DNA from: Candidatus Bathyarchaeota archaeon
GTDB lineage: Archaea; Thermoproteota; Bathyarchaeia; Bathyarchaeales; Bathycorpusculaceae
Assembly (NCBI GenBank): GCA_963806535.1
Contig: CAWDYC010000004.1
Coordinates: 224,001-288,000 of the forward strand
Direction of reading: 5' to 3'
DNA: 64,000 nt
Position numbers and translations under genes: made by a program. The notes under the pieces are model-generated. The model saw only the letters and a program-made list of their open reading frames with translations, had not been told where the DNA came from and searched no databases. Positions 11,665-18,092 of this stretch are shown here, one piece after another. Numbering within the stretch: position 1 is the first letter of the stretch; each line of letters opens with the position of its first letter.

Positions 11665-12058
11665 ATGCATGCTGGGTTAGCCTTTGTTGTAGGAATTTTA
11701 GTGACCATTGCGGCGTTCCTCTTTTTCGCTGCAATTTCAGGAACAACTTATTATGGCTTAGCAATTTCGGTCGAATTAACCCTTGGAGTGACTCTCATTA
11801 TTGTCGCTTTGATTGTTGCAGCAATATTTTATGTTGGTGTCAAAGCTCAGTTTAGATAGAGTTAAAACAGGGAAAGAAGCCTTAGTCGGGTCCAAAGGTA
11901 TCGCAACGAGCGACTTGAAACCTGAAGGCGAAATACGGGTAATGGGTGAATTCTGGAAAGCTACGGCCAAAGATACCCCAATAGCAGTTGGTCAAGTCGT
12001 GGAAGTTGTCGGTATGGAAGGAATGTTACTTGTCGTAAAACCAGCCTTTACGTCTTGA
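11665..12058 (+). CDS. NfeD-family (short) membrane protein; frameshift near 11857; 3' end is the insertion site of the element
   Basis: TM segments followed by OB-fold TGKEALVG..LKPEGEIRVMGEFWKA..VEVVGMEGMLLVVKP; partner SPFH gene lies beyond the element. Confidence 0.85.
12030..12046 (+). repeat. Left att core
   Basis: TTGTCGTAAAACCAGCC, identical to 17156-17172, encoding VVKPA of NfeD. Confidence 0.95.
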
Positions 12059-12078
12059 TAGATTTCTTGTGTTGTCAT
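12030..12078 (-). CDS. N-terminal fragment of the split integrase (MTTQEIYQDVKAGFTT)
   Basis: ATG at 12078 overlaps the stop of the upstream RHH gene (ATGA); read across the att core it joins the integrase frame at 17155 in the circular form. Confidence 0.8.
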
Positions 12079-12209
12079 TGTTTTTTATCTTCTTTGAAGT
12101 GTTGTTCTAATGCTTGGTTGATGATGTTTGATATGTCGCCTCTTTTGCGGTTTTTTTCTCTTAATTTGTTTTCGTTTTCGGGGGTTATATTAAAAATTAT
12201 TTTTACCAT
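12075..12209 (-). CDS. Small ribbon-helix-helix-like protein (44 aa), not in the ORF track
   Basis: MVKIIFNITPENENKLREKNRKRGDISNIINQALEQHFKEDKKQ: beta strand plus two helices typical of CopG/RHH. Confidence 0.7.
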   Translation of the reverse strand: MVKIIFNITPENENKLREKNRKRGDISNIINQALEQHFKEDKKQ

Positions 12210-12351
12210 TTTGTTTATTCCTTCATTTATTAGAGTTGTAATTGGATAGCTGAATATATAGATATCTTTGTTTTCTTATTATCTAAGATTGGTTTTTCCT
12301 TTGTTGTTTAATTTCTTATTTGTTGATGGTTTTTTATTTTTCAAGTTTTGT

Positions 12352-12456
12352 TAAGTCCCCTTTCTAAGATAGAAGGGGATTTAGGGGCAAGTGTGATAGC
12401 ATACTATAACCTATCTTTTATCAAGAGGTTGGGAAGGAGAGGGATGCTCTCTCCTT
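12352..12456. other. Hairpin cluster in the non-coding region of the element, candidate replication origin
   Basis: Stem-loops at 12352-12383 (TAAGTCCCCTTTCTA/TAGAAGGGGATTTA) and 12434-12456 (AAGGAGAG/CTCTCCTT). Confidence 0.45.
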
Positions 12457-12650
12457 AGTTGTTTTACGTGTGAGTGTCTCTCTCGTTTTTGATGGTTCTG
12501 GGTTTGAGTTAGTTAAATTAGAATATTTTTAGTTTGTTTGTTGGTTTTATTGTATTTTTGTTAGTTTGTAAGTGTGTTTGTTTGTATCTTAATAGTTACG
12601 ATATGTTTAAATTATCATTTGATAAGTTATTAGTCAAGGGGTGATTTAGT

Positions 12651-12746
12651 TTGAAGTGTGAAAGGTGTGGTGTTGAGTTAATCGGGGAAGGTATTGTTTT
12701 CTGTTCTGGTTGTGCAGAAAAAATTTACAGTTCTTTGTCCAGTTAA
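12651..12746 (+). CDS. Tiny zinc-finger protein (31 aa)
   Basis: TTG start with GGGGTGA SD; MKCERCGVELIGEGIVFCSGCAEKIYSSLSS has two CxxC pairs. Confidence 0.55.
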   Translation: MKCERCGVELIGEGIVFCSGCAEKIYSSLSS

Positions 12747-12750
12747 CTTT

Positions 12751-13434
12751 TTAATTTTCTTTTTTTGTTTCTTTGTTTTTTAGTAGCTCTTCAGTGAATT
12801 CTTTTATTAATTCTTTCATTGATCTATCCCAGTTTATGGTTATTTCTTCATTGAGTTTTTCCCAATTTATAGCTGTTTTAGCGTTCAGTTTTGCTTGGTC
12901 TATTATACATTGGTTAATATCTACTTCTTTTATGATTTTGGTTGTTGCTTCTATTAGTATTTGAGTAAACCATTCGTAATTTAGCCATAGATGCAATTTT
13001 GTAAGGGTTTCTATTTCTTTAAGAGGTATATCTTTATGATTTTGAATTGTTTTTAAAAGTCTTATGAAATTGGTTTGATTCCATTTGTTGATTAGGTCTA
13101 AGATAATTAATGGATTGTTTTTTGTTTCCTTTAGTATTGCGTCTATTTTGTTTGAAAATTTTTTCATAATTTCCATTGTTTTTGTGGCTTCTATAATATC
13201 AGATTGGGCTTTGTAGAGGACTGGAATTGGATATTTTTCGCTTTCGATGTCTCTTTTTCTGTCAATTAGACCGTCTTTGGTTAGCTGTTTTAGGTGTTTG
13301 TGTAGTGTTCTTGGGCTTAGTTTGGTAGTTTTTTTTAGGTTGTTGGTTCGGTGCCATTGTCCGTCGGATAGTGCTTTCCAGATTTTTGTTTGTGTTTCGT
13401 AAAATGCTTTTGTGTTTTTGTTTGATTGTATCAT
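12751..13434 (-). CDS. Winged-helix transcription regulator of the element
   Basis: IWKALSDGQWHRTNNLKKTTKLSPRTLHKHLKQLTKDGLI ArsR/HxlR-like HTH. Confidence 0.75.
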   Translation of the reverse strand: MIQSNKNTKAFYETQTKIWKALSDGQWHRTNNLKKTTKLSPRTLHKHLKQLTKDGLIDRKRDIESEKYPIPVLYKAQSDIIEATKTMEIMKKFSNKIDAILKETKNNPLIILDLINKWNQTNFIRLLKTIQNHKDIPLKEIETLTKLHLWLNYEWFTQILIEATTKIIKEVDINQCIIDQAKLNAKTAINWEKLNEEITINWDRSMKELIKEFTEELLKNKETKKEN

Positions 13435-13532
13435 TGTTTTTTACCTTTTTGATGGATGGGTTTACACCTTTTATGAGTTTATGTAGTGTATACTTATTAA
13501 TATTTTCTCGGTTGTTTTTTCGAGGATTAAAT

Positions 13533-13769
13533 ATGGTTAAACTTACTATTGATGTTAAAAAGTTGCTTTTTTTAAAAGTGTTGGTTTTAGTTGTTTCGTC
13601 GGTTTGTTTGTTGGCGATTTCATTGGTTTTTAGTTATGATTATTTTTTTGGATTTGATATTTTGGGTTTTAATCTTAGTTTAGGTTTTTCTGGTTTGCTT
13701 TTCTGTATAGGGATTTTTGAGTTGGCGTGGGCTTTAGCTTTAGTTAGTAGATTTCGGGGGAGAGTTTAA
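13533..13769 (+). CDS. Small two-TM membrane protein
   Basis: ATG at 13533 after GAGGA; two hydrophobic helices and a basic C-terminus. Confidence 0.6.
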   Translation: MVKLTIDVKKLLFLKVLVLVVSSVCLLAISLVFSYDYFFGFDILGFNLSLGFSGLLFCIGIFELAWALALVSRFRGRV

Positions 13770-13770
13770 A

Positions 13771-14430
13771 ATGGTTTCAAAATATATTGCCCTTCCTTTT
13801 ACAATTATTATTTTGCTTAGTATATTTTCGCTTTTAGGGTTAGGTTCTGGTTCATTAACTCAAAGTATGTCTGGTTCTGGTGGATATGGTTCGGGTCAGG
13901 ATGCAAAAAATCCTGGTAATTATACTGGTTGGGTAGATATTTCAGGGCGGTTAATTTTAAATTCTAACGCTGAAGTGGTTGTAAATGATTCTGGTGGTTA
14001 TTTAACATCTGTAACAATCGGCTTCAATTATGGCGGTGGTTTCAATTACTATTGGAACAATGGTACTGGCAAATATTTGTTGACTGAAGTCGGAGCAATC
14101 ACTCAGGGTAATGGTCAAGAGTCAACTGGTGCACTTCAATGGAATTTGAGCACCAGTTTAGGGTTGCTTGTGATTGTGGTTTTGATTATGGGTGTTGGTG
14201 TTGTTGTTGGCTTTCATGTTTTTGGATCAGGTGAAAATGACGTTTCTGTTGGTATGGTGCTGAAAAATACGGGTTTTCTTATGCTTTGGGCGGTTTTTAG
14301 TTCTTTATCGCTTCATTTACTGACACTAATTCCAGATGGGCTTGGTGATATTTTATATTTTGTTTTAACTGGAATGCTAACCATTGGATTAATCGACAGT
14401 ATTGGGCATCCGTCTGGGGGTTATGATTGA
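13771..14430 (+). CDS. Membrane protein: N-terminal hydrophobic helix, Gly/Asn-rich domain, three C-terminal TMs
   Basis: 219-aa ORF packed tightly with its neighbours; hydropathy pattern. Confidence 0.75.
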   Translation: MVSKYIALPFTIIILLSIFSLLGLGSGSLTQSMSGSGGYGSGQDAKNPGNYTGWVDISGRLILNSNAEVVVNDSGGYLTSVTIGFNYGGGFNYYWNNGTGKYLLTEVGAITQGNGQESTGALQWNLSTSLGLLVIVVLIMGVGVVVGFHVFGSGENDVSVGMVLKNTGFLMLWAVFSSLSLHLLTLIPDGLGDILYFVLTGMLTIGLIDSIGHPSGGYD

Positions 14431-14672
14431 TGGGTGCTTCTGTTGTTGTTGGTTCTGTAATTGTGAATAAGGTTGAAAAAGATCGTTTGGCTGTTTGTCC
14501 TTATGCTGAACAGATTGCAGTTCGTTTTGGTGTTCCCCTTTGCCTTTGTTCTTTAGGGTTTGGGGCTTGTCCGTCTCATGGTAGGCGGGCGAAATTTAAG
14601 TTTCATTTTACTGGTTTTGAAGTTGTTTGGGTTTGTGATAGGCTGGATGGGTTTCCAGATTTGGAGCGATGA
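14427..14672 (+). CDS. Small Cys-rich hypothetical protein
   Basis: Overlapping start; CPY..CLC..CP..C residues. Confidence 0.5.
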   Translation: MMGASVVVGSVIVNKVEKDRLAVCPYAEQIAVRFGVPLCLCSLGFGACPSHGRRAKFKFHFTGFEVVWVCDRLDGFPDLER

Positions 14673-14678
14673 TTTTGT

Positions 14679-15869
14679 TTGGGTAAGCGTGAAGAGGATG
14701 AGCTATGGTCTGGTTATGTTTCTTCTTTAGATAAGTCTGAGAGAGTTAAGGCTCGTCAGTGTAAGCATGATTTTGACGTCAAGATGTTTGGTGAGCCTGT
14801 TCATAGATTGACGGGTCAGAAACCTAAAGAGGTTAAGTTTGTTGAAGTTGTTGATGATTCTTCTGAGTCTGAGCCTGATGGTTATGCTCCCATTATTATG
14901 GGTTACCAACGTGTTGGTCATGGTAAAAAGACTAACGATAAGTGTGGTCAATTTATGGGTAATAAGGTTTGTTTGCGTACTGAGTTGCATCATAATAGTT
15001 TGGATGGTTCTATTCATGAGGGTGATGTTTTTGTTCGTAAGAAACATCATCATTGTTTTAATTGGCGTTGTCCAATTTGTTATAAATATTCTTCTGCGGT
15101 TCGTGAAGCTGGCCGTATAAAGCAACGTATTAATGAAGCTTCTAAGCGGTTTGGTGCGAAGCCTGAGCATGGGATTGTTAGTTTTTCAGAGGAAGATAGG
15201 GTTTTGTCTGTGGAAAAGTTGCTTGCTAAAGCTGTTAAGGGTCTTTATGCTCGGGGAATAACAGGTGGTTCTCTTATCCTACATTTGGAGCGTTATCGTT
15301 CTTCTGACTTTGTTCGGGGGGGCATTCGGCATATGAGTGAATGGTATTTTTCGCCTCACGTACATTTTTTGGGTTTTTTTAAAAATGAGTATGGTCGTTG
15401 TCGGAATTGTAAGTGCTATGATGAGTGGGGTTCTAAGAGTACGAAGGGGCATACTCGTCATACTAATCATGGGGGTTCTGCTTGTTTAGGCTGTTCTGGT
15501 TTTGAAGGTTTGACCAGAAGGTTGTATGAGAAGGATGGTTTAATCGTTAAGGTTATGGGTGAGCGAAAGAGTATTTTTGGGACTGCATACTATGAACTTA
15601 ATCATGCTTCGGTTAAGGTTGATAAGAAGCGTTTTCAGATTGTTCATTGGTTTGGTAATTGTAGTAAGCGTAAATTGAAGGTTGTTTTTGAAAAGAATAA
15701 GCAGGTTTGTCCTTGCTGTTTGCATGAGTTGGTTGATGCTCGTTATTTTGGTTCTATGGAGTTTGTAACTTCTTTGGATTCACCTTTTTATGAGCGTGAT
15801 ATGTGGCTTCCAATGAATGAGTATGGTCGTGATGTTTGGGTTGAGAAGGCTACGTGTGGTTCGGGTTAG
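14679..15869 (+). CDS. HUH-superfamily rolling-circle replication initiator-like protein
   Basis: N-terminal Cys/His cluster (C..CPIC), motif-I-like HGIVS, motif II SPHVHFLG, motif-III-like YYELNH, C-terminal CPCC. Confidence 0.75.
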   Translation: MGKREEDELWSGYVSSLDKSERVKARQCKHDFDVKMFGEPVHRLTGQKPKEVKFVEVVDDSSESEPDGYAPIIMGYQRVGHGKKTNDKCGQFMGNKVCLRTELHHNSLDGSIHEGDVFVRKKHHHCFNWRCPICYKYSSAVREAGRIKQRINEASKRFGAKPEHGIVSFSEEDRVLSVEKLLAKAVKGLYARGITGGSLILHLERYRSSDFVRGGIRHMSEWYFSPHVHFLGFFKNEYGRCRNCKCYDEWGSKSTKGHTRHTNHGGSACLGCSGFEGLTRRLYEKDGLIVKVMGERKSIFGTAYYELNHASVKVDKKRFQIVHWFGNCSKRKLKVVFEKNKQVCPCCLHELVDARYFGSMEFVTSLDSPFYERDMWLPMNEYGRDVWVEKATCGSG

Positions 15870-15881
15870 TGGTAACTCTGA

Positions 15882-16163
15882 ATGCTAATGGAGTGTTATT
15901 TGATTATGAAGTATGAAACTTTGAGGAGAATTGAAAAAAATGGTGTTTATATTGCTGAATTTGACCCCAAGGTTCATTGTAAATATAACCCGAATGTTTT
16001 ATGCATTAGATTATATCTTGGTAAGTTTGAGTGTTCTGGTTTTGTTGATAATAAGAAACAGTTTAAGGAAAAACATGAAATGGAAATTGTTTTTTGGCAT
16101 TTGTTTTGTGGTGGTGTTGATGGGTTTTTTGGTTCATTGGTGTTCATATTTATTTGTGTTTAA
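15882..16163 (+). CDS. Hypothetical protein
   Basis: ORF following Rep; boundaries uncertain, overlapping alternative frame. Confidence 0.35.
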   Translation: MLMECYLIMKYETLRRIEKNGVYIAEFDPKVHCKYNPNVLCIRLYLGKFECSGFVDNKKQFKEKHEMEIVFWHLFCGGVDGFFGSLVFIFICV

Positions 16164-16181
16164 ATTGTTTTTATGTTTTGC

Positions 16182-17172
16182 TTATTTTCTTATTCTGAAG
16201 TATTGGTATCCGTCTGCTTCTGTTATTTTCTGGTAGCCTGCGTCTGATAGTTCTATGATGCGTTTTCCTGTGTTTGGTTCTCCTAATTTTACTGCTTCGG
16301 TTTTGTATTCTTCTGGTTCGTCTAAGTTTATGCTTCTTATGTAGCCCAATGTTGTTTCAAGTTGTTTGTGTCTCATAAATCTCATGGTGGCTATTGGGTC
16401 GTGTTTGCCTTCGTGTTTGTAGAATTGTTCTCCTGCGTAGTTTCTTAGGTTTTTTAGGTTTATTAGGTCTAATTCGGGTTTGCATAGTTTTTTTGCTATT
16501 TTTCGTCTGGCTTGTCGCCATGCTTCGCCTTGTGCTTTTGCTTCTGGAAATGGTTGTTCTTTGTTTGTTGTTTTTGATAGGTAAATTCTGAGCATTTCTG
16601 CGGTTTCTGATTTTAGTTTATAGCTTCCGTTGTTGTGTCCTTTTGTGCCTGTTACGGTTAGTTTTCCTTCTTCTTTGTCTATCATTGTTCCTTTTATTCT
16701 GTGTAGTTCTTCGGGTTCTATTGCGGTTTGTGATAGGGTTGTGAATATTGCGGTGTATTTGGTTGATGCCGTGTTTATGATTAGATTCACGTTTTCTTTT
16801 GATGGGATTAGTGGTATTGGGGCTTCGTATTCCATTTTTGGCTTGTCGAATGGGATTTGGTTTTGTTCGCAAAATACGCTGTAATGTTCTAAGATTCTCT
16901 TTTTATAGCCGTTGCTTAGTGTTTTGTTTTTCATGTCGGGTCTTGAGCCTTTTAGCTGTGTTAGAATGTAGAGAAGTGTTTTTGTGCTGTCGAATAGATT
17001 GCAGTTGTCTGCTAATACTGCGAAACTGCTTTGATATTTTGAGATGGTTTGTTGGCTTCTGCCTTTTAGTTTGACTGCTTCGATTGTGTTTTCGATTGCT
17101 GTTTTGGTTCTTTCGTCTAATGGTTTTCTGGCTACTTGTGCGAAATAATGGCGGGTTGTCGTAAAACCAGCC
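16182..17172 (-). CDS. Tyrosine recombinase/integrase, C-terminal fragment (frame open from the att core)
   Basis: KNLR (HxxR position), MRHK..TTLGY (His/Tyr) and GTKG (Lys); the frame stays open 73 codons upstream of ATG 16934 up to the att core. Confidence 0.9.
17156..17172 (+). repeat. Right att core
   Basis: Identical to 12030-12046; followed by GAGCAAAAAGCTTAA, the displaced nfeD end (EQKA-stop). Confidence 0.95.
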
Positions 17173-17222
17173 GAGCAAAAAGCTTAATTCTCCAAACTAC
17201 CGAATACCAATAGAAGGTGTAA

Positions 17223-18092
17223 ATGTTGTCAGAAGTTTTAGCTCCAGTAGTAGGATTCATAGGAATCGTAATTGCTCTTTTTCTGTTAAGCGGTATACGC
17301 GTGCTCAGAGAATGGGAGCGAATGCCCGTTTTAAGACTTGGACGCTATGTCGGTTTAAAAGGTCCTGGAATAATCTATCTTGTTCCATTAATTGACAGAG
17401 CACCACTAAAAATCTCAACGAGATTAGACACTATCCAATTCCGCACAGAATCAACCTTAACCAAAGACAACGTTCCGGTAAATGTTGATTCAGTATTATA
17501 CATGAAACCTGTGGATTTGGAAAAGGCTGTGTTGGCCGTTGAAAATTACTATCAAGCGACTCAATTAGCTTCACAAACGACCTTGCGGGAAGTCATCGGC
17601 AAAGTAAGTCTCAACGAGTTGCTAGCTGAACGGGAAAAAGTTGGAGCGCGCCTGCGAGAAATCATCGATGAAAAAACTGAGTCATGGGGAATCAAAGTTA
17701 CATCCGTTGAAGTCCGAGACGTTATCATCCCTGCCAACCTTCAAGACGCTATGAGCCGCCAAGCACAAGCTGAACGAGAACGAATTGCAAGAGTAACCTT
17801 AGCCACAGCTGAGTTCGAAGCATCGGCAAAAATGATTGAGGCAGCAAAAATGTATGAGGCAAGTCCAGAAGGCTTGAGACTTAGATGGATGAACATACTC
17901 TATGAGTTGGGTCAGCAATCTCAAACAAATACGATAATGTTGGTGCCTGCATCTATGCCCGAGGCAGGTTGGCCGCCAATCGGCACTTACGGCTTCAAAG
18001 ACCTAACCACGGCACAACAAGCTCAAGCGGCAAAGAAGAAGCCATTGGTGAATCAAGAGTCGCCCCCACAAACATCTGAACAACCAGAGTAA
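17223..18092 (+). CDS. SPFH/stomatin (slipin) family protein
   Basis: RLGR..GLKGPG, LTKDNVPVNVD, QTTLREVIG and AMSRQAQAERER. Confidence 0.95.
   Translation: MLSEVLAPVVGFIGIVIALFLLSGIRVLREWERMPVLRLGRYVGLKGPGIIYLVPLIDRAPLKISTRLDTIQFRTESTLTKDNVPVNVDSVLYMKPVDLEKAVLAVENYYQATQLASQTTLREVIGKVSLNELLAEREKVGARLREIIDEKTESWGIKVTSVEVRDVIIPANLQDAMSRQAQAERERIARVTLATAEFEASAKMIEAAKMYEASPEGLRLRWMNILYELGQQSQTNTIMLVPASMPEAGWPPIGTYGFKDLTTAQQAQAAKKKPLVNQESPPQTSEQPE

Follow-up and report, generated by a model that had tools for sequence, protein, structure and literature searches.

Results and discussion

An archaeal element predicted to split its own integrase gene

A 64,000-nucleotide stretch of DNA from Candidatus Bathyarchaeota archaeon (NCBI GenBank assembly GCA_963806535.1, contig CAWDYC010000004.1, positions 224,001 to 288,000 of the forward strand; hereafter the window, numbered from its first letter) carries a 5,126-bp insertion at 12047-17172, bounded by a short direct repeat and encoding a tyrosine recombinase of the integrase type. 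We consider it probable that this insertion is an integrated Bathyarchaeia element whose own attachment site (attP) lies within the leader of its integrase gene (int), such that integration into the host chromosome shuts the integrase off. An earlier note, drawn up from the letters of the window alone, had proposed such a split gene, and the present analysis follows up its claims. The features on which the argument rests are the following, with int(N) and int(C) denoting the two parts of the split gene and attL and attR the left and right junctions:

11665..12058, + strand: short NfeD, the host target gene, with a membrane part and a C-terminal OB domain (Pfam)
11992..12078, - strand: int(N), comprising the ATG at 12078, an 11-codon leader, and the core-coded codons 12-16 and first base of codon 17
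12030..12046: core at attL (17 bp, same sequence as at attR)
12032..12054: imperfect dyad spanning the core/element border
16182..17155, - strand: int(C), the whole folded integrase without a start codon, its frame open through the right core
17156..17172: attR core, 17 bp, identical to the attL core
17173..17187, + strand: former end of NfeD, now displaced (E Q K A stop)
17223..18092, + strand: SPFH/stomatin gene, the usual downstream neighbor of NfeD (Pfam Band_7, 6.4e-34)

Borders of the insertion and its host site

The repeat that bounds the insertion, TTGTCGTAAAACCAGCC, is a perfect 17-bp direct repeat on the + strand (12030-12046 and 17156-17172) with exactly two matches in the 64-kb window and no further site at up to two mismatches, none being expected from 100 shuffles. 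Its left copy lies at the 3' end of a gene for a short NfeD protein (Pfam NfeD at 6.5e-18 for the ORF, i.e. open reading frame, at 11813-12058), which upholds the proposal that the target is a protein-coding gene. In the integrated state the end of NfeD (..VVKPA FTS-stop) is encoded by the core and the element, the insertion having swapped the last five NfeD codons for three element-coded codons and a new stop. Thaumarchaeal elements inserted in protein genes have been described as replacing the host-gene end with a new stop in this way (PMC6563490).

To find the empty site (attB), the SPFH protein was sought in 30 relatives and the sequence upstream of it was aligned with attB rebuilt in silico; the SPFH cluster of the host itself carries a Bathyarchaeia name. 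In eight congeneric genomes NfeD is followed directly by the SPFH gene with no insertion. The rebuilt attB aligned end to end in seven of these, at 73-85% identity, and partially, at 69%, in the eighth (L039). The C-terminus of NfeD reads ...VVKP[A/T]EQKA-stop in six of the congeners and EHKA, with H for Q, in one, L039 being more divergent. Since all eight congeners searched have the empty site, the insertion is real and young.

Two further observations concern the left border. The NfeD gene of the window is frameshifted near 11850-11860, where it reads ...VGVKAQFR-stop and continues in another frame, unlike in seven relatives, where it is a single ORF (...VGVKAQFRRVKTGKEAL...); either the target gene is genuinely decaying or the assembly has an indel here. 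The imperfect dyad at 12032-12054 consists of GTCGTAAA and TTTACGTC separated by 7 nt, with 7/8 positions complementary. It is present in attL and expected in attP, and is absent at attR and attB; a comparable dyad occurs near 72 of 3000 random positions (2.4%). It is possibly the pair of integrase binding sites around the overlap, a suggestive candidate only.

The integrase reading frame in the integrated and circular states

The called integrase ORF, which has the same form in public collections, runs from an internal ATG at 16934 to 16182 on the - strand and encodes 250 amino acids. Upstream of this ATG the frame remains open for 73 codons to the right core, and continues through it (...A F C S A G F T T T R H Y F A Q...) until it is closed by a TAA at 17186-17184 (-), five codons beyond the core, which arises from the TTAA of the displaced NfeD tail. 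The ORF listing shows no ATG, GTG or TTG in this frame between the upstream TAA and the internal Met at 16934, in agreement with the hand translation of the earlier note. The flank upstream of int(C) is a spacer of 50 bp in front of the oppositely oriented SPFH gene. As it stands, int(C) extends over 323 codons without a stop and keeps all 20 residues that are invariant in the family alignment.

The missing start is found at the opposite end of the element. There an ATG at 12078-12076 (-) overlaps the TGA at 12077-12075 of a 44-aa ORF as ATGA, and in the integrated state it gives a peptide of only 28 amino acids that ends in NfeD antisense. When the ends of the element were joined by script at the core, this ATG opened one uninterrupted int ORF of 340 codons, in which the core starts at codon 11 (32 nt in) and ends at codon 17. 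In-silico circularisation therefore reproduced what had been claimed of this start codon: coupling by ATGA, an in-frame passage across the core, and a 340-aa product in the circle alone. As far as the reading frames tell, the integrase gene is whole only when the element is circular.

The same layout across the family

To see how widely this arrangement is shared, we collected a family of related integrases comprising 97 protein clusters, 217 metagenome stretches (80 of them kept) and 26 genome loci. All but one of the genome loci (25/26) are labelled Bathyarchaeota or Bathyarchaeia; the remaining one stems from a bacterial metagenome-assembled genome (MAG) and is probably mis-binned. A contig labelled Limnocylindrales bacterium (L026), itself probably mis-binned, carries an integrase fragment together with a homologue of the 396-aa protein described further below. 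For each locus an exact repeat was sought between the 5' end of int and the downstream DNA, both copies were joined by script, and the junction was scored as positive where an ATG lay at least 5 codons upstream of the core with the frame open into the int body. The junction was positive in 31 of the 39 repeat-bearing related loci (with L076, which is the same record as L023, counted twice among the 39), versus 3/39 and 4/39 when the far flank was shifted by 1 or 2 nt; because of this difference the in-frame junction is not attributable to chance. The eight failures were L006, L015, L020, L022, L025, L071, L082 and L083. The 39 loci leave aside genome loci whose int 5' end has no repeat of 14 bp or more (L003, L005, L010, L012, L014, L016, L017, L018, L021 and L024), one whose 14-bp repeat lies inside the int body (L007), metagenome loci whose match starts beyond residue 90 (L070, L078, L079, L099, L111 and L116), a duplicate (L050, the same record as L001), and two whose repeats lie 735 bp apart inside int (L054 and L069).

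The leaders of the relatives comprise 14-42 codons, are polar, and often end in LLSPK, a motif encoded by a conserved TTACTAAGCCCTAA directly before the core. The same TTACTAAGCCCTAA was seen at the far ends of L013, L055, L087, L101, L102, L108, L114, L115, L117 and others, and it may be an element-side integrase binding site. Element sizes in the family range from 1.7 to 10.5 kb. At the lower end, two repeat-bounded elements of 1.7 and 3.5 kb (L008 and L113) have no room for anything beyond the integrase. The relative with the highest identity (L077, 68%) occupies a different site as an apparently lone int; these three may be remnants or minimal integrative modules.

The sites used by the family are of more than one kind. 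Among the window and 29 relatives, aragorn called a complete tRNA gene in 12/30, located at an att copy beside int(C) and encoded on the opposite strand; further family cores resemble tRNA 5' ends without an aragorn call. Non-tRNA cores are used by the closest relatives of the window integrase (49-59% identity). An AGGC[T/A]GGT-like start is common to the cores, and that in NfeD is similar to the tRNA-like cores of L098, called by aragorn as tRNA-Pro, and L117, which received no call. Among the non-tRNA relatives L001, L002 and L023, cores of the L002 type apparently sit close to the 5' end of a host ORF, and the L001 core is some 180 nt ahead of an Alba-like gene.

Two groups of loci show variations of their own. 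In a subgroup formed by L002, L052, L055, L062, L063 and L068 the core is CAAG[C/T]GCAGAA[A/G]CC, and an in-frame ATG some 10 codons before it comes from the host flank (MVQE[L/F]HAA...), so that the integrated int ORF is complete there, at about 350 aa, with a host-coded N-terminus. In the tRNA-targeting loci L009, L011, L019, L020, L025, L102, L108 and L114 the att copy on the int(C) side is a complete tRNA gene with an intron, or a repeat split by about 50 nt; since that copy is interrupted and the far copy is continuous, the element carries an intron-less tRNA segment.

The integrase protein

The homologues allow the N-terminal extent of the protein to be judged. The 250-aa ORF alone amounts to 75% of the 332-aa read-through of the integrase frame, and 58 of the 96 non-self homologues cover at least 88% of that read-through, and therefore include the sequence upstream of the internal Met. 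In a 30-sequence alignment conservation begins about 20 residues past the core and is then unbroken, the earlier residues not being alignable, so that conservation in homologues takes in some 70 residues ahead of the internal Met. The position of the internal Met itself falls in a gap-rich loop and is M in 1/30 sequences. The outcome that the earlier note had named as fatal to its proposal, homologues beginning at the internal Met, is thus not what we found.

An AlphaFold2 model of the read-through, built on the family alignment, reached a predicted local distance difference test score (pLDDT) of 89.1. In it residues 1-15, the core-coded part, fall below a pLDDT of 50 and are predicted to be disordered; helices follow at residues 23-38, 43-59, 65-73 and 90-106, then a catalytic domain, and then a small C-terminal domain. 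The internal Met is residue 83, between helices 3 and 4, and a start there would consequently drop three of the four N-terminal helices. In a profile search of the PDB the best matches were XerA (4a8e at 3.9e-8 and 5hxy at 5.9e-5), with IntI4 also recovered, all aligned from the first helix on. Foldseek matched 53 PDB chains at E<=0.001 over 280-340 columns, led by XerA, IntI4, Tn1549 Int, lambda Int and Cre. As modeled, the N-terminal part is a Xer-like core-binding domain, a possibility raised in the earlier note, and the read-through is a two-domain tyrosine recombinase. With the core-coded residues in a disordered tail and the conserved helices behind it, the 250-aa call loses most of the core-binding domain, and integration removes only the 11-residue leader.

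PF00589 is matched by 29/30 members of the family at E<=1, with a best value of 1.3e-10, and the window protein scores 22.2 bits, below the gathering cut-off of 27.1. The signature KxxR...Y is well conserved, with K243 in 28/30 members and R246, H271 and the catalytic Y280 in 30/30; R270 and K272, on either side of the conserved His, are also invariant in the family. By contrast, the column that holds the first catalytic Arg in the compared recombinases (two XerA structures, IntI4 and SSV1 Int) is Glu in 27/30, Ser in 2 and Ala in 1. In the window protein this position is read-through residue 155, at about 16716-16718 (-). Given the Glu at this position, the activity of the enzyme is deduced solely from the many precise integrations. 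The host genome encodes a paralogous recombinase on contig 6 (L029:1327-2271), which hhalign relates to the family profile with a probability of 99.6%; it has Arg at the first catalytic position and YxxR rather than KxxR. In published terms YxxR is the pNOB8-type signature, and KxxR...Y, with Lys for the box II His, the SSV1-type one (PMC8371274). A small beta-alpha-beta-beta domain follows the catalytic Tyr (read-through residues 292-331, window 16182-16304); both the family (ADGYQYFR) and the contig 6 paralogue conserve it, and it is absent from the matched Xer-type structures.

Comparison with known integrases

The principle of the suicidal, or type I, integrase, in which attP lies in the int ORF and integration splits the gene into int(N) and int(C), has been published for SSV1, pTN3 and pT26-2 (PMC8371274, PMC7253208). 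PF16795 (Phage_integr_3) is given as common to the SSV, pTN3-like and pT26-2-like families (PMC8371274), and the suicidal integrases have been treated as a hyperthermophilic-archaeal feature that arose once, within the PF16795 group, and targets tRNA genes (PMC8371274, PMC7253208). The window integrase resembles those of SSV1 and SSV2 in that attP lies inside the int ORF and integration parts an int(N) with the start codon from an int(C) with the catalytic domain; int also runs antiparallel to the target gene, and Lys stands in place of the box II His. The two arrangements differ in scale and target. The SSV1 site is 44 bp long, lies in a tRNA gene and begins 190 nt into int (codon 64 of 335), whereas that of the window is 17 bp long, lies at the end of a protein gene and begins at codon 11 of 340, 32 nt in, so that the N-fragment of SSV1 is indeed the larger, as the earlier note stated. 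In SSV2 the N-terminal extremity controls multimerisation (PMC8371274); the part removed in the window is an 11-residue leader with a predicted disordered stretch behind it. SSV1 Int moreover has Arg at the first catalytic position where the Bathyarchaeia family has Glu.

The sequences offer no significant link to SSV1. The window protein has no match to PF16795 at E<=1, and 1/30 family members reaches it at E 0.1. An hhalign comparison of the family profile with SSV1 Int gave a probability of 1.7% (E 0.029, 67 columns), and no SSV1 Int chain appeared among the PDB profile matches at E<=1. By these sequence comparisons the Bathyarchaeia family falls outside the SSV-type family and shares its self-splitting principle.

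The pTN3 and pT26-2 elements of Thermococcales and Archaeoglobales are alike in being self-splitting modules without a separate directionality factor. They differ in that they belong to hyperthermophiles, carry PF16795 and have att sites of 40-50 bp in tRNA genes only, whereas the window family occurs in Bathyarchaeia MAGs and contigs, with its closest members at non-tRNA sites. Another parallel is NitEve-E3 of Nitrososphaera evergladensis, a cryptic element of a non-thermophilic archaeon with an SSV1-like integrase split on integration (PMC6563490). Krupovic et al. 2019 (PMC6563490) place 14/68 thaumarchaeal elements in the 3'-distal portions of protein-coding genes, where, as in the window, the att sites are short and the stop codon is replaced; the accessible part of that paper does not state a split integrase together with a protein-gene target, and these elements are compared here by description. 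XerA (4a8e, 5hxy) is the closest solved structure by both profile and fold, with the N-terminal four-helix and catalytic domains aligning. XerA, however, resolves chromosomes at dif, is encoded by an intact gene and has the first catalytic Arg, whereas the window integrase is element-borne and self-splitting, has Glu at that position and possesses an extra C-terminal beta-alpha-beta domain.

No description of self-splitting integrases in Bathyarchaeia was found in the open-access literature, supplements apart. What is new relative to the described cases is a Bathyarchaeia-wide family off the SSV Pfam domain, a split confined to the leader, a short core in a protein gene, and Glu for Arg. The self-splitting logic would thereby extend to an abundant sediment and soil lineage, and be displayed by a recombinase family with no detectable relation to the SSV1 integrase, the split being placed where only expression, and not the integrity of the protein, can be affected. 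There are also practical consequences: public gene calls for integrases of this family are systematically wrong, being either 250-aa truncations or chimeras that start with translated tRNA or host flank, and the borders of an element can be read directly from the 5' end of its integrase. Should the Glu that stands in for the first catalytic Arg prove real, it would pose a question for the chemistry of tyrosine recombinases.

Proposed mechanism and its alternatives

Starting from the anatomy of the insertion, its empty site, the in-frame junction and the family-wide layout, all of them observed, we infer a promoter, a silencing of the gene on integration and a need for integrase in trans, as follows. 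In the circle a promoter, the 44-aa ORF and the int ATG would stand directly upstream of the core, and the 340-aa integrase would be made with its leader translated across attP. Strand exchange would then take place between the 17-bp core and the matching 3' end of the host NfeD. Integration would shift the promoter, the small ORF, the ATG and the first 11 codons to the left end, from where they would read out into NfeD, and the right end would keep the complete integrase body with no promoter, no start and a stop five codons upstream. From then on integrase would be made by circular copies only. If the integrated int is silent, excision would therefore need integrase from a circular copy in the same cell; and with the folded enzyme untouched by the split, the device would act on expression alone. 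This is in essence the recombination-operated expression switch that had been envisaged for the window, and it would be a case of a principle already known, in published work, as the suicidal integrase (PMC8371274, PMC7253208).

Several points weigh against this proposal. No circular form was seen: the host assembly has the integrated copy only, with no second copy or free contig, a look-up of sequencing runs listed none for the element, no terminal overlap occurs in the 80 metagenome contigs, and no relative was found in IMG/VR or among INPHARED phages, PLSDB giving one weak bacterial match. The promoter was recognised by eye only, and the ribbon-helix-helix (RHH) label given to the 44-aa ORF comes without a Pfam family. 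The window leader, at 11 codons, is shorter than in all 31 relatives and lacks the LLSPK/TTACTAAGCCCTAA motif, so the window copy may be a derived or damaged variant; the frameshift in the adjoining NfeD makes assembly indels or local decay possible. Finally, the first catalytic Arg, present in every recombinase compared, is replaced by Glu in the family.

The layout could be real and the copy in this genome a dead relic, integrated once, incapable of excision and no longer a switch, its in-frame junction a trace of past events: it is a single copy with no free circle in the assembly, its leader is unusually short and without LLSPK, the adjoining NfeD is frameshifted, and integrated halves of suicidal int genes have been called pseudogenes in published work (PMC7253208). 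We regard this as unlikely, since int(C) has kept 323 codons without a stop together with all 20 family-invariant residues, the two cores are still identical at 17/17 positions, and the empty site in all eight congeners searched speaks for a young insertion. Still less probable, in our estimate, is that the integrase continues to be made in the integrated state, be it from the internal Met as a 250-aa protein, from a non-canonical start or by read-in transcription, so that no silencing takes place. An ORF of 250 aa with an ATG does exist and is the public gene call, and in the L002-type sister group the ATG of the host flank gives a protein of about 350 aa; however, the internal Met is M in 1/30 and would cost three of the four helices of the N-terminal domain, and the host flank of the window offers a TAA five codons upstream of the core with no ATG, GTG or TTG, in a 50-bp spacer before the oppositely oriented SPFH gene.

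An origin in the assembly itself, with a plasmid contig joined to the chromosome at a short repeat, or a merely fortuitous in-frame reading, we consider scarcely credible. The genome is indeed a metagenome assembly in 12 contigs with one frameshift nearby, but an assembler would not be misled at both ends by a repeat as short as 17 bp, each junction looks as expected for site-specific recombination, with the host gene restored by a new stop, and the layout recurs in 31/39 independent loci against 3-4/39 in the frame-shifted controls. Integration that silences an integrase carrying attP in its own leader remains our preferred reading of the insertion. Beyond it, a more far-reaching combination of the results may be put forward tentatively, with rather more doubt than confidence. 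The self-splitting integrase may have evolved independently, in a Xer/pNOB8-like lineage widespread in Bathyarchaeia, with attP in a disordered leader; integration would take away the promoter and the start codon and no folded part, making it a pure recombination-operated expression toggle. The enzyme would work without the first catalytic Arg, with Glu in its stead, and would have moved from the 5' halves of tRNA genes to the ends of protein genes via sites mimicking the AGGCTGGT-type start of tRNA-derived cores.

Other genes and composition of the element

Apart from the integrase, the element contains the following features:

12075..12209, - strand: 44-aa ORF whose TGA overlaps the int start as ATGA
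12253..12261, - strand: TATA-like box CTATATATT, recognised by eye, some 48 nt ahead of the start codon of the 44-aa ORF
12751..13434, - strand (as int): 227-aa winged-helix protein (Pfam HxlR at 2.3e-4 and other winged helix-turn-helix families)
13371..14672, + strand (the G+T-rich strand): three ORFs (132 aa; 219 aa, hydrophobic; 81 aa, Cys-rich), no Pfam or PHROG family found
14679..15869, + strand: 396-aa Cys-rich protein, the sole other widely shared gene of the element family
15882..16163, + strand: 93-aa ORF, no Pfam or PHROG family found

The TATA-like box is a candidate promoter of a putative operon formed by the 44-aa ORF and int. The 44-aa ORF had been described as an RHH gene coupled to int. 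The ATGA overlap stands, and the RHH label is reduced to a lead: no Pfam family was found at E<=0.1, its PHROG match (32327, E 0.001) is of unknown function, and the nearest named Atlas clusters, RHH_1, RHH_6 and RHH_3, lie at 0.88, below the 0.9 level. Small co-directional ORFs that are not homologous to it abut the leader ATG in L009, also by ATGA, and in L013. A homologue of the 227-aa winged-helix protein lies upstream of the int leader in L002 (tblastn 1.5e-33).

The 396-aa protein has homologues in 12/26 genome loci, where it is always encoded opposite to int. Two histidines (H227-x-H229), Y305 and ten Cys are invariant in 9/9 homologues. The protein itself has no Pfam or PHROG match, the genome scan for PF01446 matched elsewhere, and no PDB fold was found below E 0.2; PF01446 is matched by 1/9 homologues at E 0.0073. 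The Atlas gives Rep_1 as a lead, and a fold search of BFVD returned 8 matches at E<=0.001, none of them named, and at E 0.02-0.04 the matches that do bear names are replication initiators. The conserved residues and these leads suggest that the protein is probably a rolling-circle initiator of the HUH type, with HxH and Tyr as its presumptive catalytic motifs.

The composition of the insertion is distinct from that of its surroundings. G+C between the cores is 0.28-0.41, with a sharp change from the flanks, and the + strand between the cores is G+T-rich regardless of gene strand, with a GC skew of +0.18 to +0.47 and an AT skew of -0.18 to -0.61; in the flanks the GC skew stays within about +/-0.15 to 0.2. 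The same tendency is seen in the family: across the 38 metagenome contigs with an upstream flank, the int-coding strand has an A+C content of 0.62-0.75, and the 600 nt upstream 0.40-0.61. Taken with the putative initiator, the element would probably be a small rolling-circle replicon. The A+C asymmetry is strong and spans whole elements whichever the gene strand, in the window (12000-17250) as in loci L049-L128, with host flanks at about 0.5, and fits a replicon that has a long-lived single-stranded intermediate.

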